This document shows positions 1 through 40,037 of a stretch of DNA of 40,037 nucleotides, in pieces. Below the pieces are notes generated by a model. That model saw only the letters and a program-made list of their open reading frames with translations. It did no database searches and was not told the origin of the DNA. Source of the DNA: Escherichia phage vB_EcoP_PHB19; the sequence record MN481365.1. One strand, given 5' to 3'. Position 1 is the first letter of the stretch. The number at the start of each line of letters is the position of its first letter. Made by a program: the position numbers and the translations under genes.

Positions 1-47
1 GTATCTCAGGGAGTGGCTTTTAGGCCGTTGTCCCGTTGACGAGATGA

Positions 48-76
48 ATAGTAACCGGTAGGACTCTTTAAGTCAA
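48..76 (-). promoter_or_regulatory. Early sigma70 promoter A1 (TTGACT, 17-nt spacer, TACTAT)
   Basis: Reverse complement reads ttgacttaaagagtcctaccggttactat; matches the position and sequence of T7 A1 (TTGACTTAAAGTCTAACCTATAGGATACT). Confidence 0.7.
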
Positions 77-130
77 TACTCTTTTTAAATTATTTTGATT
101 AATCTCTTTGGTCCTCTTTAAGTTGGCTTA

Positions 131-153
131 TCTCTCTATAGTGAGTCGTATTA
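131..153 (-). promoter_or_regulatory. T7 RNAP promoter phiOL
   Basis: tctctctatagtgagtcgtatta, one mismatch to the 23-bp consensus; sits next to the left-end repeats as in T7. Confidence 0.85.
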
Positions 154-198
154 AAGACAATGAATAAAGATTATCACTTTATAGGTAACAACAAGGCA

Positions 199-257
199 TC
201 TTTAGGTATGGTCTTTAGGTATGGTCTTTAGGTGTAGTCTTTAGGTGTAGTCTTTAG
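199..257. repeat. Left-end short direct repeats (tctttaggtatgg x2, tctttaggtgtag x2)
   Basis: Tandem 12-13-bp units, the reverse complement of the T7 CCTAAAG-type left-end repeats. Confidence 0.8.
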
Positions 258-349
258 AAGATACTTTAAGATGGGGATTGACTGAATGGGTCTTTAAGTG
301 TAGTCTTTAGGTTGTAGGCGGTAGGAATGACTTTAAGGCTGTAACAGAT

Positions 350-522
350 AGGGACACAGAGAGACACTCAAGGTAAACCCAAAGGGACAACTCAAGGTAA
401 CACTCAAAGGGTCATCCCAACCCTTAGGGAACCCTCAAGGCCAACCGAAGGTTGACTTTAGGTGATTGGCTGGGCTTTAGGAACCCCCTATGGGGGGAAC
501 TTTGGGTCCGTACACTGTGAGA
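350..522. repeat. Terminal repeat (single copy in this permuted contig); genome left end maps to about 522
   Basis: Reverse complement of 505..522 is tctcacagtgtacgg, the T7 genome terminus; about 160-170 bp matches the T7 terminal repeat. Exact boundary cannot be set without a second copy. Confidence 0.7.
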
Positions 523-599
523 TAGTCACTCAGATTTTTATGGTATATTTTAAAGGACCCTCTAGGGACCCCTCAGGCCCTCTCTAAGACCCTCTTTAG

Positions 600-700
600 G
601 CATCACTGATAGGATGGCCTATCTTTAGGTATAGACCTTAGGATAGACCATTAGAGGCTCTTTATGGGTATACCTTAGGACTTGACCCTATAGGGATGAA
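600..700. repeat. Right-end short repeats (ctttagg/cttagg units)
   Basis: Reiterated ctttaggtatagaccttaggatagacc between gene 19.5 and the terminal repeat. Confidence 0.6.
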
Positions 701-3752: not shown

Positions 3753-3956
3753 TCACTCCTTAGTGGCTTTCTTCCAGTCAATCATCTTATCGACTACCTT
3801 GGCACCAATCTGAACCACTGTGTAGGCGATAGCAGCAACATAGAACCACTCATTAAGACTCAGCCCGAAGAAAAGCCTCGCAGCGCCGTCAGCCACACCA
3901 GTACCAATAATAGGTGCAGCCTTGACTAACTCGTTGTTAAAATCTAAAGATAACAT
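3753..3956 (-). CDS. 17.5: Holin, gp17.5
   Basis: 67 aa with one transmembrane segment, T7 gp17.5-like. Confidence 0.92.
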   Translation of the reverse strand: MLSLDFNNELVKAAPIIGTGVADGAARLFFGLSLNEWFYVAAIAYTVVQIGAKVVDKMIDWKKATKE

Positions 3957-4000
3957 GTGTCCTCCTTATTGTAAGGGCCATCCTTGACCCATTAAGTGAT

Positions 4001-7000
4001 TTACTTCATGTAAATAGTGCGGAACTGTTCGTTACCACCAGAAGCCGTCATAGAGATTTTCAAGCCATCGGTAGTTGGACTAACTTTAGTCTTAGTGTCA
4101 CCACTCCAAGTCATAAAGCGATGAGTCATGCTAAACCAACTAATCGGAACGTCGTTATAGGTTACAGTTCCTAGAGATTCAAACCCTTGGGTAACTATTA
4201 GAGTCTGTCCTACGCATTTCTGGGGGACAACAAACTCTACAGACATCTGTTGAGGGTCTGCTAGTACCTTGACGCCTGCACTAATTAGCCCAGTCTCGGA
4301 GTTAACAAAACGACACCCAGTGAAGTTAACTGCGCCGATGAACAGTCTGTTAGCCTCTAAATCTGTCTCCCATTTACCAACAACGGTTACACCGTTAAAC
4401 TTGATGTCTGAGTTGGCGTTGGCGTTGACAGGGTTAGCATTGTTAGTCCCTACCTTACCACCAGTGATGCTGATAGACATGGGCTGTTCAGACCAACCAC
4501 CTGAGTAGGTATCAAGTTGTGATAACTCGGAGTTTGTTACCTCAAAGCGACCACGATGGGCAATCTCAAGGTGAGCACCCTGCATTCCACCACCACGAGC
4601 CTGTAGGTTATCAATATATACTAATGGGTTGTGCGTATCACCCCGACCCACGATGGACACAGTGTCAGTTCGGCAGTTAGTCAATCGGAACTGGGGGTAC
4701 GTCTGGTCTGTATACTTGTTTCCTGTAGGACTAGTGTTGACGGCCTTAAACTGACTCATGTCGATAGTTAGTGCAGCGCCAGTCTCACCAGTGTCCCAAT
4801 TGTTAACGTTGACAATCATGGGGTGCTTGATGGACTTATCGGTAGAGCTAAGCAGTGATGTAGGCGCTGGTGGATAAAGTCCACGCTCAAAGGTTACACC
4901 ATCAATGTCTACCTTACGAAAGAACGTGAAGTTAACTGGGGACCCAGCGATCGCGCCTTGAGTAGCATTCGGTACACACTCTAAGAATGCTGGAATTGTG
5001 ATACCAGCACGGCCGTTGACTGTGCAGTTCTTTATGTAGAGGTTTCCATCACACCAACCACCAGCGTCACTACGAGAGCGCACAAAGCCAGAAGCATTGA
5101 ACGCATCCCGTTGTAACCAAGTGCTATTAGTGATGTACAGGTCTCCCATAATGGTTACTAGTACACCCCAATTACCAATCACACAGTTATCAATCTTCAA
5201 CCACTCACGAGCAGGCTGGTGGAAGTCAATACGAGATAACTGAGAGTTCTTGAAGGTTACACGTTGTGAGTTATTGGAACCTGTGGAACCCCAACCATAA
5301 CCATCAGATGTGAGGCCATCAATGGTAACGTCGAAGCTGTTCTCAATGGACAGAGAGTATGTGTACGTATCATCAGTGGTGGCATTCACGTCAGAGCAGT
5401 TAACGTTCTCGACACGAATGTACGCTGAGTTACTCACAATGAGTCTGGTCATGTTGATAGGCTTGTATGCCCCACGGTTGAAGTAAGAGATGTTTTTAAT
5501 AACCACGTTGGTAGCATCTTGCACAACTAACAGCCCAACCTTGGTATAATCAGACTCATCGAACGTGATACCCTTAACTTCAAGCCACTGTGCTGTAATA
5601 TACAAACGACGCAGCTTTGTCACTTTCACACCACTAAGAGAGTAATACAGTGGTGCCGCTAACTGACCATCTTTAAATACACGGTTGAACTCATCACGAT
5701 AGCGAGGTTCGCCACGATATTTAAATAGAGGCTGAGTGGTTTCATACTGGATAAAGCTATCATCCATTTCCATGAAGTCTTTCCACCCTGAGAACATTGT
5801 TGAGCCGGTTCCTACGTTAGTTGATAGGCCCAACTTCTGAATAGGAGCATCTGTAGAGGTGAACTCCATCCACTGATGGTCGCGCTTAATGTATACAAAG
5901 CCATTCCACTTAGAAGGCCACAAGGTCGCACCAGACAGGTCGGTGTTAACCTTAATCTCAATATCCCCATTACCAGATAATTTGAAACGACCCGTGGTCT
6001 GACGAACACTAACCTTAAGACGACTAGCGGCATTGAAGCAATTCATGATCTGAGCCAGTGAGTTAGAGTTAGCTGTACGGTCTGCGCCAAACATATCAAA
6101 TGTTAGTTCAGTTTCTACGTAGCGTTCCCAAACACCACCACCAGAAGCAGCAATACGACTACCACCATCGTCCGCCTCAGTGCTCTCTTTGTTTAACACG
6201 AAGATGCCACCACCAACGTTCAGACCCTTGTAGTAGGAATCTACGTATACGTGAGTGTTGTTTGGGGCATAATCTAGTTCTCGCAGGGATGCGATAGAAT
6301 CAACGTGAGTAAGCACATTGTTTACACGGTTAGCAGCTTCTTCTGCCCTATCAGCGTTGGCGCGCGTGCTTTCATCAAGGTCTCGGAGTTCCGGCATAGT
6401 AGCGTTAATCATAGATACTGCCTCGTTAGAGACACGTTCTGATTCGGCAGCGTTTTCCTCAGAGACCTTGGCAGCATCTGCATATTCCTTTGCTTTCAGT
6501 TCAGCCTTCTTAGCCCCATCCTGTGATACTTTAGCAGCGCCCTCAGATTCCACAGCATTCTGTGCGGCCAGTTCCGCACGTTCAGCAGAGTGTAATGCAG
6601 AGTTGTCCCACGAACGAACTTGACGCATAGTGACGGCATCTCCAACATCCACACCATCAGCTAGGTTCACAATACGACGACCACGGGCATCCAAGTGACC
6701 ATCATTGTTGACACCAATAGTATCAGCAGTTAAGTCACGTGCCTCTTCTGCCACATGCATAGTCTGAATCTGAGCCACGTTAAGGTCGTACGCACGGAGG
6801 ATTGAACCATCCGTAAAGTCAACCAGACGGTCAGTCGTGGAGGTTACTCGGCGTAGCTCAATAGTAGTGTAACCGTCCGCAGGACCCCAAGATTTGGTTA
6901 GCGAGATAGTAGTACGCGTAGCAAAGCGATAATCTGTATTGAGTGTGAGGACCTTACGGTCAACACCAATGAGAGTTACCACTACAAACTTACGGGCTAG

Positions 7001-7078
7001 ATATTCAAACGGGATATTAAAATCACGATTTGAGCCATCTAACTGGTAAGTCAAAACGGTCTTAATTACGTTAGCCAT
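4001..7078 (-). CDS. 17: Tail fiber / tailspike, 1025 aa: T7-like adaptor N-terminus plus large non-T7 beta-helix module (putative depolymerase)
   Basis: First ~150 aa near-identical to T7 gp17 (MANVIKTVLTYQLDGSNRDF...). The remainder is unrelated to the T7 fibre and almost twice as long (T7 gp17 is 553 aa), with beta-helix-like repeats (NVVIKNISYF, NLYIKNCTVNG) and an FGA-containing segment. Confidence 0.9.
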   Translation of the reverse strand: MANVIKTVLTYQLDGSNRDFNIPFEYLARKFVVVTLIGVDRKVLTLNTDYRFATRTTISLTKSWGPADGYTTIELRRVTSTTDRLVDFTDGSILRAYDLNVAQIQTMHVAEEARDLTADTIGVNNDGHLDARGRRIVNLADGVDVGDAVTMRQVRSWDNSALHSAERAELAAQNAVESEGAAKVSQDGAKKAELKAKEYADAAKVSEENAAESERVSNEAVSMINATMPELRDLDESTRANADRAEEAANRVNNVLTHVDSIASLRELDYAPNNTHVYVDSYYKGLNVGGGIFVLNKESTEADDGGSRIAASGGGVWERYVETELTFDMFGADRTANSNSLAQIMNCFNAASRLKVSVRQTTGRFKLSGNGDIEIKVNTDLSGATLWPSKWNGFVYIKRDHQWMEFTSTDAPIQKLGLSTNVGTGSTMFSGWKDFMEMDDSFIQYETTQPLFKYRGEPRYRDEFNRVFKDGQLAAPLYYSLSGVKVTKLRRLYITAQWLEVKGITFDESDYTKVGLLVVQDATNVVIKNISYFNRGAYKPINMTRLIVSNSAYIRVENVNCSDVNATTDDTYTYSLSIENSFDVTIDGLTSDGYGWGSTGSNNSQRVTFKNSQLSRIDFHQPAREWLKIDNCVIGNWGVLVTIMGDLYITNSTWLQRDAFNASGFVRSRSDAGGWCDGNLYIKNCTVNGRAGITIPAFLECVPNATQGAIAGSPVNFTFFRKVDIDGVTFERGLYPPAPTSLLSSTDKSIKHPMIVNVNNWDTGETGAALTIDMSQFKAVNTSPTGNKYTDQTYPQFRLTNCRTDTVSIVGRGDTHNPLVYIDNLQARGGGMQGAHLEIAHRGRFEVTNSELSQLDTYSGGWSEQPMSISITGGKVGTNNANPVNANANSDIKFNGVTVVGKWETDLEANRLFIGAVNFTGCRFVNSETGLISAGVKVLADPQQMSVEFVVPQKCVGQTLIVTQGFESLGTVTYNDVPISWFSMTHRFMTWSGDTKTKVSPTTDGLKISMTASGGNEQFRTIYMK

Positions 7079-7126
7079 TTGACCTCCTTAAAGTAAATCT
7101 AAAGTCTACAGGGAGAAGATAGGACC

Positions 7127-7149
7127 TCTCCCTATAGTGAGTCGTATTA
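7127..7149 (-). promoter_or_regulatory. T7 RNAP promoter phi17
   Basis: Exact consensus tctccctatagtgagtcgtatta directly upstream of gene 17. Confidence 0.9.
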
Positions 7150-10100
7150 TTTCCGACGCTCCCTCAAGTTAACACCATTCGCCTCATAAATCTTCAACAC
7201 AAGCTGTTGCGTCAATGGGTCGTTTGGTACTAACTCTTTTGTGGAGTTCATGAGACCAGTCATGAAGTCCTGCTCAGTGGCTTTGTTGGGAGCATTCACC
7301 ACGCCAGCAGTATTAAGTAGGGAAGCCCCAACGTTAGCCACAAATCCAGCCGATGGCATCTGTTCAAGAATGTTGGAACCCATATTACCCATTACCTCCC
7401 ACGAGGTATAAGGCTTATTAGGGTCACGCTCACTTACGGTGTCTTTAGGAAGAATCGTAGAGCGAGCCATCTTTGAGGACTCAACCCCGAACAGGCCACC
7501 AACTAGGTCAGCCATAGCCAAAGGAGCACCTAATTGAGAACTACGCGACAACGAAGCGTGGGCAATCATGGTTGGGTCCAATGCACGCTCCAAGTATTCT
7601 TTACGTTTCTCCTTAGTCATCCCATACGCTTTGACGTGTGCAGCCATAGCGTAGTAACCACCAGCGAGACCCATAGAGATGATACCAGTCAGCGCAGCGT
7701 CAATCGCTCGGTTGTTCTTGTAACCATCGTAGAAGGTTCTCAGGAACTTAGAGTTAAGGGATTTGATAGTGAAAGACTTAAACTGCATAACCATCTTACC
7801 TAATGCTCCGAACGCATGTGAATCCTGTAATGATACCTTATGCGGACGCAGCATTGCCTCATCAGCTACCTTGTCAGCCAGTCGCCACAAGTCCATAGCT
7901 CTTGGGTCCATAGAGAACGCGTGCTTATCCTTAACGGTATACTTACCATCTTCACCACGCACCATGTGTTCCTTAATGAGTGCCTTGATTCCTTTCATCT
8001 GCTCAGGTGTAACTGACGCGCCGCGGAGGAATCCTTCCTTCTCCCAACGGGTAGTCTTCCCAGATAGGGTAGCACTAATAACGTCCCCAAGCATACCTTG
8101 ACGCGCAGCATCCAGAAGATAGTTAGTGGTTCCATTAAGCAGCTTAGTCCACGGAGAGCGAGCAGCCAGTTCCTGTGTGGAATACTTCAAGGTACCTACG
8201 ATGTTCGCCACAACAGGACCTGTATCAGTTGCTTCCCTTAGACGCTGAACTATGTCAGCACGTTGAGGTCTAATCAACTGGTCCACCTCCTTCCCGAACA
8301 GAGACGCATGGAGTTCCTTAAGTTCCTTAGCGGAAACTGGTTTAGACTTGTAGAGGGTATCACGTAGAATTGGTATACCGTGACCAAGAGCACGAACGTT
8401 ACCCGTGGCAATCATCCCAGCAATCTCCGTAAGGTTTTGAGCACCCATATAGGCGTTCTTGGCGAAGAACCCTAGGTCATTGATGGAACGAAGTGAGGTT
8501 TCCCATACAGTGTCCTGATTGCGTCGAGCACGACCAGTAAGAATCTTCACGGTATCCATGAGAGCATGTACCTCACCTGTCTTCTTACCGTCCCCCTCAG
8601 CTTTCGCTTTGAGAGCCAAAATCTCATCCTTAAGTTCCTTAGTGGTTTTACCGGTAGACCCCATTATTGCGATGTCACCGTTGATACGGCGGTCATACGC
8701 TGGCATGATACGGAACATATTAAAGTCCCTCAAATCGTTCACAGAGAATTGCTCACCGTCTGGCATGGTGATTGCTAAGTCGGAGTCAAAGAGGTTTCGT
8801 GCTTCAAGGAATGAATTATTCTCTATACCAACAAGACCCTCAATGTTCTCCTCAATGATGGAGCTATTAGTGAACCTGTCTGAGTGAGAGATACCGTATG
8901 CTTTATCCATAGCGTACTTATACACCATATCATGAGTGACTTCCTCTACACCGTGCATCTCTTTAAGTGCTTCGTCAATACGGGCCTTTACCGCAGGTCT
9001 CAAATCGTAGCTACACACCCATGACCGAGCGATACCTTCCTGTAAGCCCTCAGCACCATAGCGTTGAATTTTGAGTGCCTTAGCGTACTTGTCGTACACA
9101 TGTGGGACATACGTTCCCTTGTGTCTACTCTCTGGAAAGATACTCACAGCCTTCGTATTACCAAAGACCGCAGGGTTCTCCATAAGTTCACGCTTGGTGT
9201 CATAATGTCGCTTAACGATGTCCATTACGATTCGCTCGTTAGGAGTTAAAGCCTTCTGTAGCTCAGGGTTCTCAATAGCCAAGGCCACTCGACGCTCGAT
9301 AGTGTAACGAGCTTCTTCGCGAGACATCTTAGCGCCGCCAGTGGAGAACTCAGGGTCTTTCATCGCGTCAGACATTGCCTTATACAGGTCGTTGTAAGTA
9401 CGCTGGTCAGTGCCACGAAGTTTCTCGAAAATGTCAGAAGCTGTTGAACCATACTTACCTGAGGAACCTGATTGCATTCCGGTAGGAGACCGCACTAGGT
9501 CAATAGCTACCCGTCGAATATCAGCATCGTCTGAGCCTAAGGTCTTTAACCCAATCTCAGTGAACCCTGCTAGTTTGATACCTCGTGCCGCTTTCTCAGG
9601 GTCAACCTCGGAGAACTCTTTGAGAGTCTTGGGGTTGATTGGGTTGCTCGCACTAAGTATGGATCCGTCATGGAGAACCACAGCACCCTTTTCGGTCGGA
9701 AGTTCCTCATAAGGAACGCCTTTGTATTCACCTTCAAACTTCATGTTCTCAGTGTTAATCCTAGATAGGTCCGCAGAGTTGGCGTTACGCGCTGTCTCTC
9801 TGGCTTCCATTCGCATAATAGGACCAATGAACTCATTGTCGAACTCGGCTTCTGGTTTACTACGTTTCAGACCAGCAGCCACAGCGTCACTGATTGCAGA
9901 CATACCCGCACCAAACACAAAGCCACCTAATGCCGCACCAGCGTAATCCGCATCTCCACCAGCTACAGAGGTGCGGAGACCTTCGGATGCAACGTTCAGC
10001 GCAGCACTTTCGGCACCAACTACAAGGGCCTTATTGATTAACTTAAAGCCCTTACCAGTCACACCAACCATAGGAACATAACTGAGTGGGTCAACACCAG

Positions 10101-14417: not shown

Positions 14418-14440
14418 TCTCCCTATAGTGAGTCGTATTA
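14418..14440 (-). promoter_or_regulatory. T7 RNAP promoter phi13
   Basis: Exact 23-bp consensus. Confidence 0.9.
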
Positions 14441-18795: not shown

Positions 18796-18818
18796 TCTCC
18801 CTATAGTGAGTCGTATTA
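18796..18818 (-). promoter_or_regulatory. T7 RNAP promoter phi10 with T7-like leader and ribosome-binding site
   Basis: Exact consensus; leader reads ...tttaactttcttaagaaggagatatacatatg on the coding strand. Confidence 0.95.
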
Positions 18819-19834: not shown

Positions 19835-19857
19835 TCTCCCTATAGTGAGTCGTATTA
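19835..19857 (-). promoter_or_regulatory. T7 RNAP promoter phi9
   Basis: Exact consensus. Confidence 0.9.
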
Positions 19858-22742: not shown

Positions 22743-22797
22743 GATAAAGATTCCTCTTAGAGTTAAATCTTAAAGTAATAATCATAAAGGCCCCTAT

Positions 22798-22820
22798 CTC
22801 CCTATAGTGAGTCGTATTAA
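22798..22820 (-). promoter_or_regulatory. T7 RNAP promoter phi6.5
   Basis: taatacgactcactataggggag on the coding strand; may be shifted by 1 nt. Confidence 0.85.
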
Positions 22821-29633: not shown

Positions 29634-29656
29634 TCTCCCTATAGTGAGTTCAATTA
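29634..29656 (-). promoter_or_regulatory. T7 RNAP promoter phi3.8
   Basis: taattgaactcactatagggaga on the coding strand, directly upstream of gene 4 with no gene 3.8 between. Confidence 0.8.
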
Positions 29657-30109
29657 GCCACGGTCAGACGTGACAAGTTCGTTCTTCTCCCACCAACGCT
29701 TAAGGTCGAACGAAGGGCAAGCCTTGGGTGCGACATCGTGATGGGCTTTCAGTACAGCGCCTTCGTACTTAGCCAGTAGTGTGACAAGCAGTGAGCGAAG
29801 GGATTTCATTTGGGCTGGCGTAAAGTTAGCTTCGAACTTACCTTTATCGTCAATGCCACCAACAAGGCAGACACCGATTGAGTTGTGATTGTGGCCCTTA
29901 GCGTGAGAACCTACAGCCATCTCGTCTCGGCCTTCCTCTACAGTGCCATCTCGTTTGATGATAAAGTGATACCCCACATCAAGCCAACCTTGCTCTTTAT
30001 GCCACTGACGAATCTCACGGACACCTACATTCTGACTTGGCTTGGTAGCCGAGCAGTGAACAAAAATTGCGTCAGTAGATTCACGTTGTTTAAACTGTAC
30101 ACGAGCCAT
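29654..30109 (-). CDS. 3.5: Lysozyme (N-acetylmuramoyl-L-alanine amidase), also an RNAP inhibitor in T7
   Basis: 151 aa, T7 gp3.5 length and sequence. Confidence 0.97.
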   Translation of the reverse strand: MARVQFKQRESTDAIFVHCSATKPSQNVGVREIRQWHKEQGWLDVGYHFIIKRDGTVEEGRDEMAVGSHAKGHNHNSIGVCLVGGIDDKGKFEANFTPAQMKSLRSLLVTLLAKYEGAVLKAHHDVAPKACPSFDLKRWWEKNELVTSDRG

Positions 30110-30561
30110 TATTTCTTCTCCTTCTTAATAATCATTTTGTCCCAAGGAATCTCCTTACTAGGTTCTTTAAGCCATTCCGCAGGTATCAACTTATCTGCGA
30201 ACTTAATGCTGTGTTTTTCTGCCCACTCACCGTAGCTGGTGGGAGACCCTTTGTATAACTTGGTGCGACTTGAAGAGAACACGATGCGTATATCGAGGTC
30301 TGGGAACTGTTCGCGAATAAGCAAATGTTTCTTACGGTCTTCTGCTTCGAACAATCCCTTGAACTCTACTATGATACCGTTTGGTAGCAACGCGTCAGGT
30401 GTATATTTATGGTTACTAGCTGGTATTACATAAGGGATTGAGAATGATTCATATTTAGCCTTAACTCCCATACTCTCCAAGCGTGCCATATTTTTCTCTT
30501 CAAGTCCACTTCGGTAGTTTCCTACACGTTTAATTCCTCGTGCTGCGTAACATGCTGCCAT
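30109..30561 (-). CDS. 3: Endonuclease I (Holliday-junction resolvase), divergent from T7
   Basis: 150 aa with the conserved core PYVIPASNH.YTPD..LPNGI.VE.KG...DRKKHLLIREQ.P.LDIRIVFSSSRTKLYKGSPTSYGE; about two-thirds identical to T7 gp3 by eye; DNA visibly more AT-rich than its neighbours. Confidence 0.9.
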   Translation of the reverse strand: MAACYAARGIKRVGNYRSGLEEKNMARLESMGVKAKYESFSIPYVIPASNHKYTPDALLPNGIIVEFKGLFEAEDRKKHLLIREQFPDLDIRIVFSSSRTKLYKGSPTSYGEWAEKHSIKFADKLIPAEWLKEPSKEIPWDKMIIKKEKK

Positions 30562-31019
30562 GCCTTACCTCTCTTTATGCAATGAATTAACTTCTGAGAG
30601 ACTCCAAACAGTGCTGCAAGTTTACGCTGCGACAAGGTTGACATATAGATTTCAAGTACCTCTTCTTCTGTCAGTTTAGCATTAACATGGTCACTTCCAA
30701 TCATTACCGGAGGTAGTTTGTTCCTCCCTCTACTGATAGCGTCTGAGCTGTTATCCTTATATGTGCCGCTACGCAAGTGCTCAGGATTACAACACTTGCG
30801 ATTATCACAGGAGTGTAAAACTAGCTGGCCTTTTGGAATCTCGCCAATGAACACCTCGTGTGAGACCCTATGTGCCGTCTCATTCCGGTGCCCTCCTGTA
30901 GCAATGTTTCCATAACCGTGACTCCCGAATGACTTCTGCCATATCCAGCATCCATTCTCATCGGGAATCACATTGTCTAGAATTTTCTTCTGCAATGCCT
31001 CACGGCTAAGGCGTGGCAT
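30522..31019 (-). CDS. HNH-family (HNH_3-type) endonuclease, putative homing endonuclease, at the T7 gene 2.8 position
   Basis: 165 aa; ENGCWIWQ...GYGNI...HRVSHEVFIGEIPKGQLVLHSCDNRKCCNPEHL is an HNH_3-like signature, followed by a helix-turn-helix-like tail. Start overlaps the gene 2.5 stop (TAATG); the 3' end overlaps gene 3. Confidence 0.8.
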   Translation of the reverse strand: MPRLSREALQKKILDNVIPDENGCWIWQKSFGSHGYGNIATGGHRNETAHRVSHEVFIGEIPKGQLVLHSCDNRKCCNPEHLRSGTYKDNSSDAISRGRNKLPPVMIGSDHVNAKLTEEEVLEIYMSTLSQRKLAALFGVSQKLIHCIKRGKAWQHVTQHEELNV

Positions 31020-31717
31020 TAAAAATCTCCGTCTGAGTCTTCTTCGTAAGAGCCTTCGTCGTCTTCGTCCCAGCTTTCTTCGTCGCGTGGTTTGCTCGCT
31101 TTGGCAGAACCAGAGGCAACATAGCCGTTCTCTTCAACTTCGTCAGCCCAATCGTCTTCACCGCCACCAAAGGTAGCCAGTTCGACCAGCATCACGGATT
31201 CCAGTTGCAGCTTAACGCTTGCACCCACAGCGGTGTTCCACTTGTACGGAACCAGAGAGTATTTGACTTTCAGCTTAGAGCCACCGCCGATAATCGGAAC
31301 GTCTTCCATCTTCTTACCTTTGGAGTCAACCACAACCAGATTGATGTGCTTGGTCTCTTTGGTCTTCTTGTCTTGGAAAGACGCGTAGCATTTAAACTTA
31401 AAGGTAGTCGTACCGTCACCGTTATCGAAGAACGGCATGTCACCTTCATACGGTTTCAGCGGTTTCTTACCACGAGCTACGGACGGCGGGTTAGCCTCAT
31501 ATTCCTCAACGGCAGCAGCATAAGCCTCTTCGTGACACTTCACGATTTCATCGACCATACGTTGACAACGCGGGTCTTTGTTGGGAATAGTCAGGTCAAC
31601 TTTGTAGACACCACGCGGGTTCCCAAAGCCACGCTCTTCGTTACCGTAGTCCGGCTTAGAGATGTAAGCGTAAGGTTCAGCAGTACCCAGTGCAGAGGTG
31701 AAAATCTTCTTAGCCAT
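31019..31717 (-). CDS. 2.5: Single-stranded DNA-binding protein
   Basis: 232 aa as in T7 gp2.5, with the acidic C-terminal tail ending DDEGSYEEDSDGDF. Confidence 0.97.
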   Translation of the reverse strand: MAKKIFTSALGTAEPYAYISKPDYGNEERGFGNPRGVYKVDLTIPNKDPRCQRMVDEIVKCHEEAYAAAVEEYEANPPSVARGKKPLKPYEGDMPFFDNGDGTTTFKFKCYASFQDKKTKETKHINLVVVDSKGKKMEDVPIIGGGSKLKVKYSLVPYKWNTAVGASVKLQLESVMLVELATFGGGEDDWADEVEENGYVASGSAKASKPRDEESWDEDDEGSYEEDSDGDF

Positions 31718-31750
31718 AATGTTAATCTCCTTTAGGTTTCGTTTAGTTTC

Positions 31751-31775
31751 TCAGAGGGAGTCTTCCCCAATAGTG
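31751..31775 (-). promoter_or_regulatory. T7 RNAP promoter phi2.5
   Basis: taatacgactcactattggggaaga on the coding strand (phi2.5-type start). Confidence 0.85.
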
Positions 31776-31782
31776 AGTCGTA

Positions 31783-32049
<267 letters not shown>

Positions 32050-32084
32050 CTATACACTCAGTCCACATCTTGTGGCACCATTCA

Positions 32085-32318
32085 CTAGGCTTTAAGATTG
32101 GCTTCATTAGCTTCCTCCAATCTCTTCAAGTACCACTGAGCCTTCTTCAAGTCCTCAGTAGGGTTAAACTTCTTCTCGTAACGCCACATGTATTTCAGTA
32201 CATTACCTTTAAGGAATCCTTTAAATGCCTCTTCTGTCATTGACGCGCGAATCGCGTCGAGACATTCAATTCCACCAGACGTGTAATGTTCTGGTTGGTT
32301 TACCATGTCTTTGCTCAT
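32085..32318 (-). CDS. Short gp1.7-like protein (77 aa), apparently only the conserved C-terminal core of the T7 nucleotide kinase gp1.7
   Basis: ...PEHYTSGGIECLDAIRASMTEEAFKGFLKGNVLKYMWRYEKK...DLKKAQWYLKRL matches the pattern of the T7 gp1.7 C-terminal region as I recall it; start overlaps the gene 1.6 stop (ATGA). Confidence 0.75.
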   Translation of the reverse strand: MSKDMVNQPEHYTSGGIECLDAIRASMTEEAFKGFLKGNVLKYMWRYEKKFNPTEDLKKAQWYLKRLEEANEANLKA

Positions 32319-32578
32319 CAGAACACCTCCTTGATTCGTTTGAGTAACAGACGGACGAACGGGAAGCGGGTCACTGCCACGCTAAGAACCGGACGTTTCT
32401 TGTCTATTGCTTTCTCGAAGTCACCACGAGTGATAATGATGTGGACGCTCGGTGCCAAAGGAACTGTGTTACCAATAAGAGGTAGCTTAGCTCGGCGCTC
32501 GCTCGCACATACGATCGAACGGTCAGCACGACGAACCGTGAAATTCTTAAGGCTTTTGTTGAAGTGAAGTCGGAACAT
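32318..32578 (-). CDS. 1.6: gp1.6
   Basis: Internal start [31 protein letters not shown]...; near-identical to T7 gp1.6. Confidence 0.9.
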
Positions 32579-32584
32579 ATAGTG

Positions 32585-32606
32585 TCTCCTATAGTGAGTC
32601 GTATTA
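32585..32606 (-). promoter_or_regulatory. T7 RNAP promoter phi1.6
   Basis: tctcctatagtgagtcgtatta. Confidence 0.85.
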
Positions 32607-32694
32607 AGCGTGACCATCGGGCATGTCGTCATCATTCTTAAAGTGAAGCGCAAGACATCCAATGATAATAATTAGTAATGGAAGTAAGTACATC
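32605..32694 (-). CDS. 1.5: gp1.5 (29 aa)
   Basis: Hand translation [30 protein letters not shown] between phi1.5 and phi1.6, same size and position as T7 gp1.5. Confidence 0.6.
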
Positions 32695-32704
32695 ATGAGG
32701 TGTA

Positions 32705-32726
32705 TCTCCTATAATGAGTCGTATTA
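32705..32726 (-). promoter_or_regulatory. T7 RNAP promoter phi1.5
   Basis: tctcctataatgagtcgtatta, one mismatch to consensus. Confidence 0.8.
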
Positions 32727-32727
32727 A

Positions 32728-32765
32728 ACGCAGAAAGGCCCACCTTTCGGTGAGCCAGTGTGGTT
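32728..32765 (-). terminator. TE early terminator for host RNA polymerase
   Basis: Coding strand ggctcacc-gaaa-ggtgggcc followed by tttctgcgttt, directly after ligase gene 1.3 as in T7. Confidence 0.85.
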
Positions 32766-33780
32766 ACATTTTCTCTTGAGGATTGTCCTCAGCGCCACGG
32801 AAGCAGGTGAATGAAGGATGTCTAAGGTTTCCATTAGGTGTTACCTCCATAAATCCAATTTGACAAGCCCACCCATTGTAGTAGTCCTCGCCATGTTCTT
32901 TAACGTTAGCTGTAAATTCATCCATCAGTTCCCGTGAGATGTTATTGGCATCGACTACACACCCGCTTTCTAGCAAGACACTAAAGCCAATAACTTTACC
33001 TTCGTTAGCAAGTCCTTCTGTGCCCCAGTTTACACCTTGAATGATGCCGTCAGCTTCCTCAAGAGGCTTAAGTTTCCACCAGCCGGACTTCTTGCCTCGC
33101 TTATAGATGCACATTGGGTCTTTCACAATGAGACCTTCATGTCCTTCCGCTCGCTTCTGCTCATACAGTTGCTGTAGTTCTACCATATCGTAGACCTCGT
33201 AAGACTCAGCCGCTTGCCATTCGATTTCAGGGAAGTATTCCTGTAGCAGAGGCAGCATGTTCTTAACGTGTTCCTGCATGAGTAACGTCATGACATCACA
33301 GTCTTCCCCTGATTCCACGATGTGCAGCGGGAGGATAGCGTACAGTTTGACACTCAGACGTTTGGTGTCCAACGCGAACTCAACCTTGGACCCCTTGAGT
33401 GGTGGCACACCGCCAACGTCGAACTCAAAGTTCTTCTTGTTGAGCCACTTGGTACGCAGTAGGCCGGACCCAGTGTTGAAGTCTACGCCTTTGACCATTA
33501 GTTCACCATCAAGCATAAAGCCATCTCTGTAGAAGCAGCGGTCGTCGCTCAGTAGACGCTTCCAGCGAACATCAAATCCGTTTAAGTGCTCCAGTGCCGG
33601 AATCGTTTTAGATACACGAGAGAGCCAGCAACTGTTAGCGGTATTGTCAACTACAATGTTACCACGAACTCCGTCATATTTTACATCACAAATAAGATAC
33701 CCAGCGTTGTCCAGAGCTTTCTTAATGGCAGACTCTACGAAAGACGTTGCTTTAAATGGGTTGGTCTTAATGTTCATCAT
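32764..33780 (-). CDS. 1.3: ATP-dependent DNA ligase
   Basis: 338 aa; adenylation motif KYDGVRG; T7 gp1.3 homolog but about 21 aa shorter through two internal deletions (from recalled T7 sequence). Confidence 0.96.
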   Translation of the reverse strand: MMNIKTNPFKATSFVESAIKKALDNAGYLICDVKYDGVRGNIVVDNTANSCWLSRVSKTIPALEHLNGFDVRWKRLLSDDRCFYRDGFMLDGELMVKGVDFNTGSGLLRTKWLNKKNFEFDVGGVPPLKGSKVEFALDTKRLSVKLYAILPLHIVESGEDCDVMTLLMQEHVKNMLPLLQEYFPEIEWQAAESYEVYDMVELQQLYEQKRAEGHEGLIVKDPMCIYKRGKKSGWWKLKPLEEADGIIQGVNWGTEGLANEGKVIGFSVLLESGCVVDANNISRELMDEFTANVKEHGEDYYNGWACQIGFMEVTPNGNLRHPSFTCFRGAEDNPQEKM

Positions 33781-33800
33781 AATATTTATCTCCTATTGGT

Positions 33801-33840
33801 TAAATGACTAAGGCCACTCAGTTAGAGCGACCTTAAGCAT
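33801..33840 (-). promoter_or_regulatory. RNase III site R1.3
   Basis: ctaaggccactcagttagagcgaccttaagc, conserved motif. Confidence 0.55.
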
Positions 33841-33863
33841 TGTCCCTTTAGTGAGTCGTATTA
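33841..33863 (-). promoter_or_regulatory. T7 RNAP promoter phi1.3
   Basis: taatacgactcactaaagggaca on the coding strand. Confidence 0.85.
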
Positions 33864-34133
33864 CTTCCAGTGCTGTAGGTCACTGTGTACCTTACGGAGC
33901 CATTCGGTCTGTGCATTACAGCGAACGTCTTCATCTGACTGCTCGAAACACTTAGCGGTCAGCATTAAGCCATCCCGCAATATCACTCGAAGTGTCTCAC
34001 CGGCAACCATCCGTCGCTGTTCGAAGTCCTCATAGCGATAAGTTTCAACGACCACATTTGCATCATAGTCTTCTTTAAGTCTCTCGATAGCGTCTTTGTA
34101 TGCTATTAAGTTGCCACTGTATAAACGTCCCAT
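33861..34133 (-). CDS. 1.2: gp1.2 (host dGTPase inhibitor in T7)
   Basis: Internal start MGRLYSGNL... as in T7 gp1.2; C-terminal half is divergent. Confidence 0.8.
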   Translation of the reverse strand: MGRLYSGNLIAYKDAIERLKEDYDANVVVETYRYEDFEQRRMVAGETLRVILRDGLMLTAKCFEQSDEDVRCNAQTEWLRKVHSDLQHWK

Positions 34134-34134
34134 C

Positions 34135-34263
34135 TTACTGACCATCCCAGCAGCGTTTATGAGCACGGGTGCGCATTGGTTTATTAAACTTGCGACCTTT
34201 GGTTGCCTCGAAGTCATGAGCGTTACGGTTGGAACGTTTTGTCATCTTTTCGAAGTTACGCAT
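34135..34263 (-). CDS. 1.1: gp1.1 (42 aa, basic)
   Basis: Hand translation MRNFEKMTKRSNRNAHDFEATKGRKFNKPMRTRAHKRCWDGQ, near-identical to T7 gp1.1. Confidence 0.8.
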   Translation of the reverse strand: MRNFEKMTKRSNRNAHDFEATKGRKFNKPMRTRAHKRCWDGQ

Positions 34264-34440
34264 ACTTAAAGTCCTCTCTTAGTAATCTTTAATTTAAATC
34301 TTTAATTAACACTTAAGGGTCTTAAAGTTAAACCTTAAGGTTCTCCTATAGTGAGTCGTATTAACAAGAAGAAGGTCAATCATAAAGGCCACTCGTTAAA
34401 GTGACCTTGAGTTTGTCCCTCTATAGTGAGTCGTATTAAT
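34264..34440 (-). other. Primary origin of replication region: AT-rich tract plus tandem promoters phi1.1B (34342..34363) and phi1.1A (34416..34438) flanking RNase III site R1.1 (34364..34415)
   Basis: Two consensus T7 promoters 75 bp apart with the ataaaggccactc...gaccttgag hairpin between them and an AT-rich tract before gene 1.1; same architecture as the T7 primary origin. Confidence 0.8.
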
Positions 34441-38415: not shown

Positions 38416-38543
38416 TTGCGCAGTGCTCCCGTGATGATACAAGCGACCAAGTAAGAGCCTACAGCTACACCCAAAGACTTCCCAAAGGATGCACCTACAG
38501 CTAGACCCAGAGCGGTGAGTAGACCGATAGTAAGCATATACAT
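38409..38543 (-). CDS. 0.5: gp0.5 small membrane protein
   Basis: Hand translation MYMLTIGLLTALGLAVGASFGKSLGVAVGSYLVACIITGALRKC, as T7 gp0.5. Confidence 0.7.
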   Translation of the reverse strand: MYMLTIGLLTALGLAVGASFGKSLGVAVGSYLVACIITGALRKC

Positions 38544-38554
38544 TACTCCCGTAA

Positions 38555-38608
38555 GTAAAGTGATAATCATGAAGGCCACTCGCTAGGAGCGACCTTGAGC
38601 CTATCACT
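38555..38608 (-). promoter_or_regulatory. RNase III site R0.5
   Basis: catgaaggccactcgctaggagcgaccttgagcc. Confidence 0.55.
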
Positions 38609-38756
38609 CAGCAGACTCCAAGGCTATTGCCTTGTTGTTTTCGTACAGTTCCTTAAGGTGTGCCATTGCGAGCGACCAATCAAAGCCACAGCGCACCATG
38701 TCACTATAAAACAGTACAGTTTGAGCGGTCAGACCGTATTGCGTATCTTTAGCCAT
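38604..38756 (-). CDS. 0.4: gp0.4 (FtsZ inhibitor in T7)
   Basis: Hand translation [50 protein letters not shown]; start overlaps the ocr stop (TAATG). Confidence 0.8.
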   Translation of the reverse strand: MAKDTQYGLTAQTVLFYSDMVRCGFDWSLAMAHLKELYENNKAIALESAE

Positions 38757-39118
38757 TACTCTTCGCCCTCTTCGTACTCTTCAGACTCTTCGACTTCCTC
38801 AAGATACTCGTTCAGCAAATCTTCAGCGTCTTCCCAAAGGTCGATTGTGAGTTGCTCATAGATACGTGCTTGCAGGCTACGGATTACGTCCTTGGTGTCC
38901 GGCATCAGACCAGAGTCTTCGAACTCAAGGTCAATGCCCTCGCTTGCCATTACACTGAAAACGTCACTGTAATAGTGCGGAACAGCATTATCAGCCGCCA
39001 TATGCACTGCATCGTGCAGGTCATCAGTGTCACGAATGTCATCATAACGGATATTTTCTTTCAGCATTTCGTAAGCGTGATCGAAAACGTTGTTATAAGT
39101 CATGTTAGACATAGCCAT
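38756..39118 (-). CDS. 0.3: Ocr, DNA-mimic anti-restriction protein
   Basis: [36 protein letters not shown]... with acidic C-terminus, near-identical to T7 Ocr. Confidence 0.97.
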
Positions 39119-39164
39119 TGTGCGTTACCTCATAGTGTGTGTGTATAGGTTAGTAGTGCATACC

Positions 39165-39230
39165 ATAAAGGGCATCTTGCGATACCCTTGAGCTATCCGC
39201 TACGTGTGTACACTCAAGAGCCGTTTACCA
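39165..39230 (-). promoter_or_regulatory. RNase III site R0.3
   Basis: Hairpin gctcttgag...ctcaagggtatcgc just upstream of ocr, as in T7. Confidence 0.6.
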
Positions 39231-39640
39231 GATTGTTAAAGAGCGTCTTAGTTTGTGCCTTGATAGGCCAGCTTACGCCAGCCTTGTTTCAATAATCCAA
39301 TACCTCTTTTACATCCCGTAAACTAACACCCAATGCAGAGGCTATAGCTTTAGCCGCACCCTGCTGTATGTGTCTCCTGTTAAGGGAGGGATTACCTTTC
39401 ATGTGTATAAAGTAGTCTACTTTTACTTTATCAGGTAACTGCAAGACCTCTCCTGTCTCCTTATTCCTTTTAAAACAAGGGCAAGAGTATACACCTTTAG
39501 CAAGCTCCCACTCATTTGAGTTAAAGATACTAAAAACTTCCTCAGTGTTTAACTTCTTAATACCAATTAAAGCCATGATAATTCACCTTTTGTCAGTTGA
39601 CCTATCAAGGCACAAACCAAATTGTTAAAGAGCATGTCGG
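39228..39640 (-). mobile_element. Inserted cassette relative to T7: ~20-bp imperfect direct repeats (39228..39244 and 39617..39633) bracketing perfect 16-bp inverted repeats (39252..39267 tttgtgccttgatagg; 39601..39616 cctatcaaggcacaaa) and one ORF
   Basis: In T7 the sequence taagacgctctttaacaatctgg directly follows gaaacctgacc; here that junction is split by a duplicated copy of the site plus the inverted-repeat-flanked cargo. Confidence 0.45.
39289..39576 (-). CDS. Hypothetical early protein (95 aa) with C-terminal helix-turn-helix-like segment, carried by the inserted cassette
   Basis: MALIGIKKLNTEEVFSIFNSNEWELAKGVYSCPCFKRNKETGEVLQLPDKVKVDYFIHMKGNPSLNRRHIQQGAAKAIASALGVSLRDVKEVLDY; AAGGTG Shine-Dalgarno 7 nt upstream of the ATG; same strand as all phage genes; AT-rich relative to flanks. 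Confidence 0.75.
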   Translation of the reverse strand: MALIGIKKLNTEEVFSIFNSNEWELAKGVYSCPCFKRNKETGEVLQLPDKVKVDYFIHMKGNPSLNRRHIQQGAAKAIASALGVSLRDVKEVLDY

Positions 39641-39702
39641 TCAGGTTTCGTTAGACCCTAGCGCGTTTCAGTGTTGCGCCTCACTGTCGTTTCATGTGGT
39701 AC

Positions 39703-39731
39703 ATCTTACAGCTTTTAAAGGAGGCTGTCAA
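39703..39731 (-). promoter_or_regulatory. Early sigma70 promoter (A3 position, variant -35/-10 spacer)
   Basis: Coding strand ttgaca-gcctcctttaaaagctg-taagat followed by gtaccacatgaaacgacagtgag, the downstream context of T7 A3. Confidence 0.7.
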
Positions 39732-39849
39732 CCTGTTATTCTTTTATGCGATGAGTGACCGAATTCGACTCATGGCTAGTGCCTTATCCTTGGTGGGTCG
39801 CGGGCAGGTTTCTCGGTTCCTATCCCTACACCCTTACTGCTTGTGGTAC

Positions 39850-39878
39850 ATCGTACCGTGTTTACTGCATGTTGTCAA
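39850..39878 (-). promoter_or_regulatory. Extra early sigma70 promoter (A3-like copy)
   Basis: Coding strand ttgacaacatgcagtaaacacggtacgat, nearly identical to T7 A3 itself but separated from the A3 downstream context by a ~115-bp insert. Confidence 0.65.
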
Positions 39879-39955
39879 CCATTTTGTTTCACCTTGTGTG
39901 CCGTGGTGCGCTTAAGTCACCTAGAAGACACCGTGCTACCGTGTTGACGCTGTGT

Positions 39956-39985
39956 ATCTTACTGCATGTTACTTCATGTTGTCAA
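39956..39985 (-). promoter_or_regulatory. Early sigma70 promoter A2
   Basis: Coding strand ttgacaacatgaagtaacatgcagtaagat, as T7 A2. Confidence 0.7.
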
Positions 39986-40037
39986 TGCCTGTTTTTCGTA
40001 CGACTTATCAGGCTGTCTACTTATCCGGTTGACCCCG

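Follow-up and report, generated by a model that had tools for sequence, protein, structure and literature searches.

The tailspike encoded by gene 17 of Escherichia phage vB_EcoP_PHB19 is a modular protein, in which a T7-type tail anchor, an Ala/Glu-rich shaft, and a β-helical depolymerase follow one another, and it probably belongs to a Tyr/His/Arg family of polysaccharide lyases. We examined the gene in a 40,037-nucleotide (nt) stretch of sequence record MN481365.1 (hereafter, the window), where it occupies positions 4001..7078 of the minus strand, the strand carrying all the features described below, as an intact open reading frame (ORF) of 1025 amino acids (aa). The product was an exact sequence match to QHI00738.1 / UniRef100_A0A6B9RGS9 of the same phage, and the top BFVD match of its structural model, A0A6B9RGS9 (1025 aa), was 100% identical over the modelled region. 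According to reviews of the original study (Chen et al. 2020, AEM 86:e00145-20), PHB19 is a lytic T7-like phage of a Shiga-toxin-producing strain of E. coli (STEC), HB10 (O91), and Dep6 is its tailspike-derived, O91-specific polysaccharide depolymerase; recombinant Dep6 removed biofilms, sensitized STEC HB10 to serum, and protected mice. The phage, together with the fact that Dep6 is an enzyme specific for O91, has been in the literature since 2020. Added here are the probable assignment of Dep6 to the lyase family of K64-ORF41, three residues proposed as catalytic, a prediction of the bond cleaved, and a map of two natural recombination joints, GRRIVNLA and ADRAEEAANRVNxVxTHV. We consider the whole picture of identity, architecture, and depolymerase function very likely to be correct. 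The more specific reading, in which Dep6 would be a Tyr/His/Arg β-elimination lyase, not a hydrolase, acting at GlcNAc-(1→4)-GlcA6N-Gly of O91, and would represent a subfamily of amidated-uronate tailspike lyases carried on a three-part cassette moving among Studiervirinae backbones, is evenly poised between being right and wrong when all its parts are taken together.

In terms of fold, an AlphaFold2 (AF2) model of residues 255–1025, built with 25 homologues (predicted local distance difference test [pLDDT], 88.2; predicted template modelling score [pTM], 0.85), showed a long parallel β-helix, preceded by a head domain and a capping helix and followed by a C-terminal β-sandwich. K64-ORF41 (8x8m_A) was the one solved structure that the foreign part matched by sequence over ~630 residues (phmmer, E=1.6e-31), and Foldseek aligned the spike model with the same chain across the whole spike (E=6.5e-39, TM 0.81/0.81), with the head domain, right-handed β-helix, and C-terminal sandwich present in both. 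The β-helix of a depolymerase family, which a first-pass annotation made from the letters of the window had proposed, was therefore recovered by both sequence and structure. Among the folds that it had suggested looking for, the pectate-lyase-like β-helix was found, whereas an SGNH or sialidase (β-propeller) fold was rejected, with no Pfam, PDB, or fold matches. PF27114 (Phage_tail_beta) is pre-annotated on the 98%-identical cluster representative (P0001) and on all close relatives, a membership read from the annotation of these relatives. NCBIfam profiles gave only one spurious weak match to the spike. As a separate observation, the second-best BFVD fold match to the model of residues 255–1025 came from the T1-like siphovirus Escherichia phage Rtp (tail fibre Q333D4, TM 0.86, 27% identity), followed by Proteus phage PM75 (TM 0.80), suggesting that the lyase-type spike is common to several phage morphotypes and enterobacterial hosts.

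K64-ORF41 is a β-elimination lyase with the intrachain catalytic residues Tyr528, His574, and Arg628 (PMC11652154). In a 12-sequence MAFFT alignment, these residues fell in invariant columns together with Tyr574, His620, and Arg669 of Dep6, respectively. An exhaustive profile search identified 118 clusters (50% identity) at E<=1e-30, and when conservation was counted over 138 aligned family representatives with <=50% identity, Tyr574 (codon at 5357..5359) was retained in 132/132, Asp618 and His620 of the motif SRIDFH (Asp618-Phe-His620, 5219..5227) in 131/131 each, and Arg669 (codon at 5072..5074) in 132/134. The same three residue types act in the Klebsiella K1 lyase, in which the H373A mutant is dead and Y311A and R397A retain 0.4% and 0.04% activity, respectively, and which is insensitive to ethylenediaminetetraacetic acid (EDTA) and releases unsaturated products (PMC8822698); these properties fit syn β-elimination with Tyr as the base, His as the acid, and Arg as the neutralizer. 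Judging from the alignments, Dep6 is probably a member of the lyase family with a Tyr/His/Arg triad that includes K64-ORF41 and the K1 lyase.

By analogy with these two enzymes, Dep6 would act by metal-independent β-elimination, with Tyr574 and His620 as the putative base and acid and Arg669 as the residue that neutralizes the carbonyl at C6 of a 4-linked uronic acid. That it cuts by β-elimination, i.e., is a lyase, appears to us likely, although several points weigh against it. The β-helix identity behind the assignment is only 20–23%, and the Tyr574/His620/Arg669 triad was placed by sequence alignment. The Pfam profile Pectate_lyase_4 (PF00544) scored below its cut-off (17.6 vs 24 bits, E=0.0032, aa 501–584 only); because the score was under the gathering cut-off, this match is read as a fold-level resemblance, and membership of the classical pectate lyases (PF00544, CAZy PL1) was rejected. 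The review passages that describe Dep6 state no catalytic mechanism, catalytic residues, or structural family, and the abstract of the original study is said to speak of 'hydrolase activity'. Furthermore, the uronic acid of O91 is presumably a glycine amide and not a free carboxylate, which would alter the ligand of the Arg 'neutralizer'. Finally, acid/base hydrolysis would still have candidate residues in Asp618, which is invariant, and in Asp592 and Asp671, which nearly are.

These acidic residues are the core of the strongest alternative, namely that Dep6 is a glycoside hydrolase that splits O91 polysaccharide with water by means of conserved acidic residues of the β-helix (e.g., Asp592, Asp618, and Asp671). 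Hydrolases make up the majority of phage β-helix depolymerases (PMC11652154), and the conservation of Asp618 (131/131) and Asp671 (120/134) in the family also speaks for hydrolysis. However, the next structural tier consists mostly of uronate lyases and epimerases. The O91 repeat, moreover, reportedly contains a derivative of a 4-linked uronic acid, which β-elimination requires, and we regard a hydrolase as unlikely. The idea that the spike is a non-enzymatic adhesin, serving for binding only, is scarcely credible: turnover by the spike is not provable from its sequence, and PfbA and pertactin are β-helix adhesins, but the triad is strictly conserved across the family, and recombinant Dep6, as the reviews report, degrades surface polysaccharide and biofilm and sensitizes cells to serum. 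The lyase assignment bears on a protein that has been tried as an anti-STEC agent in mice, and for which a predicted structural family, a predicted lyase mechanism, and three targets for mutation are now available.

In terms of substrate, the first-pass annotation had expected a surface-polysaccharide receptor, either capsular or O-polysaccharide, and for Dep6 this had been established experimentally, with the O91 O-antigen as the target according to the reviews. The closest characterized relatives, K64-ORF41 and the K1 lyase, degrade capsules, which would favour a capsule or another exopolysaccharide co-occurring with O91 as the true substrate. On the other side, the title of the primary paper and two reviews give O91 specificity, with the target named as 'lipopolysaccharide (O91)', and amide-linked glycine, listed among the O91 constituents in a review of E. 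coli O-antigens (PMC7685785), would fit an O-unit that contains the amide of a uronic acid. A capsular substrate is accordingly improbable, and the substrate of Dep6 is the O-antigen rather than a capsule.

A lyase requires a 4-substituted uronic acid, and the O91 repeat reportedly includes →4)-β-D-GlcpA6N-Gly, for which reason GlcNAc-(1→4)-GlcA6NGly is the predicted target bond. In the O-antigens of Providencia, a genus in which relatives of the spike were found (see below), uronic acids carrying amide-linked amino acids are abundant. If the reading of Dep6 as an O91 lyase holds, it would be a polysaccharide lyase acting on an amino-acid-amidated uronic acid.

Gene 17 is flanked by gene 16 and gene 17.5 (holin) and follows the T7 class III promoter phi17, which is present as a perfect 23-mer (TAATACGACTCACTATAGGGAGA, 7127..7149) overlapping the end of gene 16; a strong ribosome-binding site (TAAGGAGGT, 7082..7090) precedes the ATG at 7078 by a few bases. 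The anchor (aa 1–140, 6659..7078) is a T7 gp17-type tail-attachment domain. PF03906 (Phage_T7_tail) spanned aa 1–155 (E=1.5e-67, 226.7 bits vs a 25.2-bit cut-off), and 136/139 residues (97.8%) were identical to those of T7 gp17, with three differences within residues 1–139, in agreement with the earlier identification of the N-terminus as the T7 gp17 tail-docking domain. A modular swap had also been proposed, with its boundary at ~150 aa; the swap was confirmed, but the T7 alignment shifts the crossover to codon 140, ~10 codons upstream. Specifically, the identity to T7 gene 17 DNA was 23–29/30 per 30-nt block up to nucleotide 420 and then collapsed to 18, 12, 13, and 10 per block, placing the 5' crossover at codon 140 (window ~6658), directly after GRRIVNLA, the residues with which the anchor ends. 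The interval 4001..6628, to which the first-pass annotation had been attached, is only the non-T7 part of gene 17.

Past codon 140, no T7 DNA similarity was found until just beyond the gene 17 stop codon, and the product is longer than the 553-aa T7 gp17 by a factor of 1.85, consistent with the claim that the remainder is foreign to the T7 fibre and nearly doubles its length. Homology to T7 is regained at 3955, where the gene 17.5 holin ends, and homology to phage 64795_ec1 at 3986. The 44-nt spacer from the gene 17 stop to the gene 17.5 start (3957..4000) was not alignable to T7 and contains the 3' recombination joint. As delimited by these alignments, the foreign DNA is the entire distal part of gene 17 plus most of the 3' spacer.

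The anchor is followed by an Ala/Glu-rich α-helical shaft (aa 141–241, 6356..6658). The Ala/Glu-rich linker noticed earlier is evident in the composition of aa 156–262 (21.5% Ala, 14% Glu), and the full-length AlphaFold model predicted a single long helix at residues 151–252, with low confidence. Such low confidence is expected for one chain of a trimeric coiled coil, which the modelled shaft probably forms. The shaft ends at the second recombination joint, the conserved 18-residue stretch ADRAEEAANRVNNVLTHV (aa 242–259, 6302..6355). Beyond it lie a small α/β head domain and the β-helix cap (aa 260–356, 6011..6301). K2-2 TSP, Kp7 gp52, and Depo32 have N-terminal domains homologous to the head domain, and the capping helix corresponds to aa 341–354. 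The FGA segment singled out in the first-pass annotation lies in this head/cap region (F330-G331-A332, 6083-6091); it was conserved in at least 90% of the relatives and aligned with the DFGAxGDG cap motif of a PF12708-annotated relative, and is thus a genuine signature of such β-helices. The catalytic body, a right-handed parallel β-helix homologous to K64-ORF41 (PDB 8x8m), extends over aa 357–906 (4361..6010), and the C-terminal module (aa 907–1025, 4004..4360) consists of a helix (907–916) and a β-sandwich (917–1025). This module is the most divergent part of the spike, being 26–30% identical where the β-helix is 47–58% identical.

Taken as a working machine, the gene 17 product would be the only receptor-binding protein of PHB19. 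As its homology shows, the anchor (residues 1–140) docks the spike, probably a trimer, on the T7-type tail, and the helical shaft of ~100 residues may keep the spike away from the tail. The β-helix binds and degrades the O91 O-polysaccharide, the activity published for Dep6, and this degradation gives the virion access to the outer membrane of its Shiga-toxin-producing E. coli host. The gene probably arose, and is probably still being reshuffled, by recombination at two conserved joints, one closing the anchor (GRRIVNLA) and the other at the end of the shaft.

Searches for relatives of the spike returned few close sequences. In a phage DNA collection derived from INPHARED (50,697 records, PHB19 itself not included), gp17 of Providencia phage PSTRCR_120 alone was related over the full length (45.5% aa identity, 70% nt identity over 20% of the segment), and none of 5,426 complete E. 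coli genomes matched the DNA of the foreign segment. An index of gene positions listed no contig for the PHB19 protein itself. Species-representative genomes contained only 27–34% identical relatives, in Pseudomonas, Acinetobacter, and Paracoccaceae, and the closest spike relative in IMG/VR was no better than 38%; a second, word-indexed protein search yielded almost no additional matches. Meanwhile, gene 17 was 97–99% identical at the nt level in an independent metagenomic contig (L008), near-identical spike proteins were found on other contigs of ~40 kb, and an 87%-identical version occurred in two T7-like contigs of 39.5–39.7 kb (L005 and L007). In L005, the spike DNA was 76–84% identical, whereas the shaft differed (46%).

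These contigs bear on whether the chimeric gene 17 is an assembly artefact, in which a T7-like contig was joined to an unrelated tailspike. The abrupt loss of T7 similarity at codon 140 is what such an artefact would produce; however, the reading frame is unbroken and served by a promoter and a ribosome-binding site of its own, the guanine-plus-cytosine (GC) content is continuous (46.8% vs 48.2%), recombinant Dep6 is active, and the same type of gene 17 is carried by L008 (97–99% nt identity), by the ~40-kb contigs, and by L005 and L007 (87%). The artefact explanation is refuted by these contigs, and we attach practically no weight to it.

When the parts of the protein were compared separately among the relatives, their identities did not vary together. 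One relative (P0003) had an anchor identity of 96%, a shaft identity of 36%, and a spike-body identity of 88–90%; in a second (P0002), the corresponding values were 64%, 83%, and 91–97%; and in a third (P0006), they were 67%, 81%, and 58–75%, with a C-terminal domain at 30%. The shaft is a module that can be exchanged independently, its identity being 81–94% in P0001, P0002, and P0006 vs 36% in P0003. By contrast with this variation, the 18-residue joint was 89–100% identical throughout, including the Providencia phage and relatives with a 47%-identical spike. In these comparisons, at least three T7-like lineages combine anchors, shafts, and spikes independently of one another, with exchange around two conserved joints. 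Spikes with 84–87% aa identity to that of PHB19 were also found on a BA14-like backbone (L037, SRR17836586), the flanks of which were 94.8% identical to Escherichia phage BA14, and on a Studiervirinae backbone with at most ~76% nt identity to any cultured phage (L036, ERZ28567961). O91-type spikes therefore circulate among several T7-like lineages. On the more specific reading given at the outset, spikes on an anchor–shaft–spike cassette would travel among T7-, BA14-, and other Studiervirinae backbones. The two joints offer useful coordinates for engineering the host range of T7.

A spike homologue of 775 aa without a T7 anchor was present in a prophage of Providencia stuartii (P0009, GCA_034307905.1; 41% identical, 32% GC). 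In this genome, the homologue (L010, 10001-12328) was immediately preceded by tail-tube and YdaY-like genes and immediately followed by umuD/umuC-like genes, and tape-measure or baseplate genes were absent between them, an odd and possibly truncated tail module. The GC content of the foreign segment of PHB19 was 46.8%, against 48.2% for the backbone, 40% and 32% for the Providencia relatives, and 53% for the Klebsiella relative. As it matches the backbone and not the Providencia or Klebsiella relatives, the spike module has long been resident in E. coli-type phages. A recent acquisition from Providencia was rejected, given the GC content of 46.8% vs 40% and 32% and an identity of only 45%.

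Compared with named systems, the PHB19 spike combines familiar elements. That T7-like phages exchange tailspike modules on a conserved gp17 anchor is textbook knowledge. K64-ORF41, from Klebsiella phage SH-Kp 152410 (Przondovirus; PDB 8x8m/8x8o), is likewise encoded by a single receptor-binding protein gene between gene 16 and the holin. It is, however, only 20–25% identical to the PHB19 spike overall (23% in the helix), lacks the Ala/Glu coiled-coil shaft (8.5% identity in the shaft segment), and lies in the backbone of another genus, with a gene of 53% GC vs 47% in PHB19; its substrate is the Klebsiella K64 capsule, whereas that of the PHB19 spike is the E. coli O91 O-antigen. The K1 lyase (NTUH-K2044-K1-1 ORF34, 7w1c) and K64-1 S2-4 (9k4a) are β-helix tailspike lyases with the same Tyr/His/Arg solution, the mechanism of which has been proven by mutagenesis and a product complex, but they are much smaller (~650 aa) and remote in structure (TM 0.35–0.41) and sequence (~10–15% identity, no sequence match detected). 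T7 gp17 (PDB 7boz, 8e4g) has the same promoter and gene position, and in each of the two proteins the anchor leads into a helical shaft, whereas the distal fibre and tip of T7 (aa ~150–553), which bind rough lipopolysaccharide, are wholly replaced in PHB19.

The closest cultured and genomic relatives of the spike besides PHB19, PSTRCR_120 gp17 (MW358928) and the P. stuartii prophage protein (45.5% and 41% over the whole spike), keep the joint motif and the triad, but differ in the anchor (49% identical in the former, absent in the latter) and in the C-terminal domain (26% identical). In the K1F/K1-5 endosialidase phages and Klebsiella przondoviruses, as examples of tailspike swaps, natural or engineered, among T7-like phages, a conserved gp17-type anchor carries an exchangeable enzymatic distal module that sets the host range. 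Unlike in those cases, the exchangeable unit of the PHB19 type is split into three (anchor, shaft, and spike) by two joints, on the backbone of a close T7 relative.

The remainder of the window is T7-like. Over 98% of 22.9 kb, the nt identity to Escherichia phage HZ2R8 (Teseptimavirus-type) was 92.2%; the flanks of gene 17 were 88.5% identical to T7, and the early region was 91–92% identical over 84–89% to T7-like phages. By ICTV convention, a genus corresponds to at least ~70% nt identity over the genome, and <95% identity to any member marks a separate species. On these alignments, the PHB19 backbone is of the Teseptimavirus type, at 88–92% nt identity to T7-like phages, and the earlier description of it as nearly T7-identical was overstated. 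The contig L008 was 92–99% identical to the window across genes 19 to 17 but only 57–67% identical towards the C-terminal end of gene 16, which encodes internal virion protein D (window 7104-8900), so that a second mosaic block directly adjoins the tailspike gene.

T7-like genomes have terminal repeats of ~160 bp or more. No direct terminal repeat was detectable when window positions 1–600 were compared with 38538–40037, and in L005, a circularly permuted relative, the two window ends mapped ~300 nt apart; assembly of the deposited record probably collapsed or trimmed the repeat. All the genes lie on the minus strand, and the record is therefore the reverse complement of the usual T7 map. The minus strand also carries twelve T7-promoter-like sites, of which six are perfect 23-mers, where 0 were expected by chance (131-153, 1066-1088, 7127-7149, 14418-14440, 18796-18818, 19835-19857, 22797-22819, and within 29634-34438), indicating that the phage RNA polymerase almost certainly shares the promoter specificity of T7.

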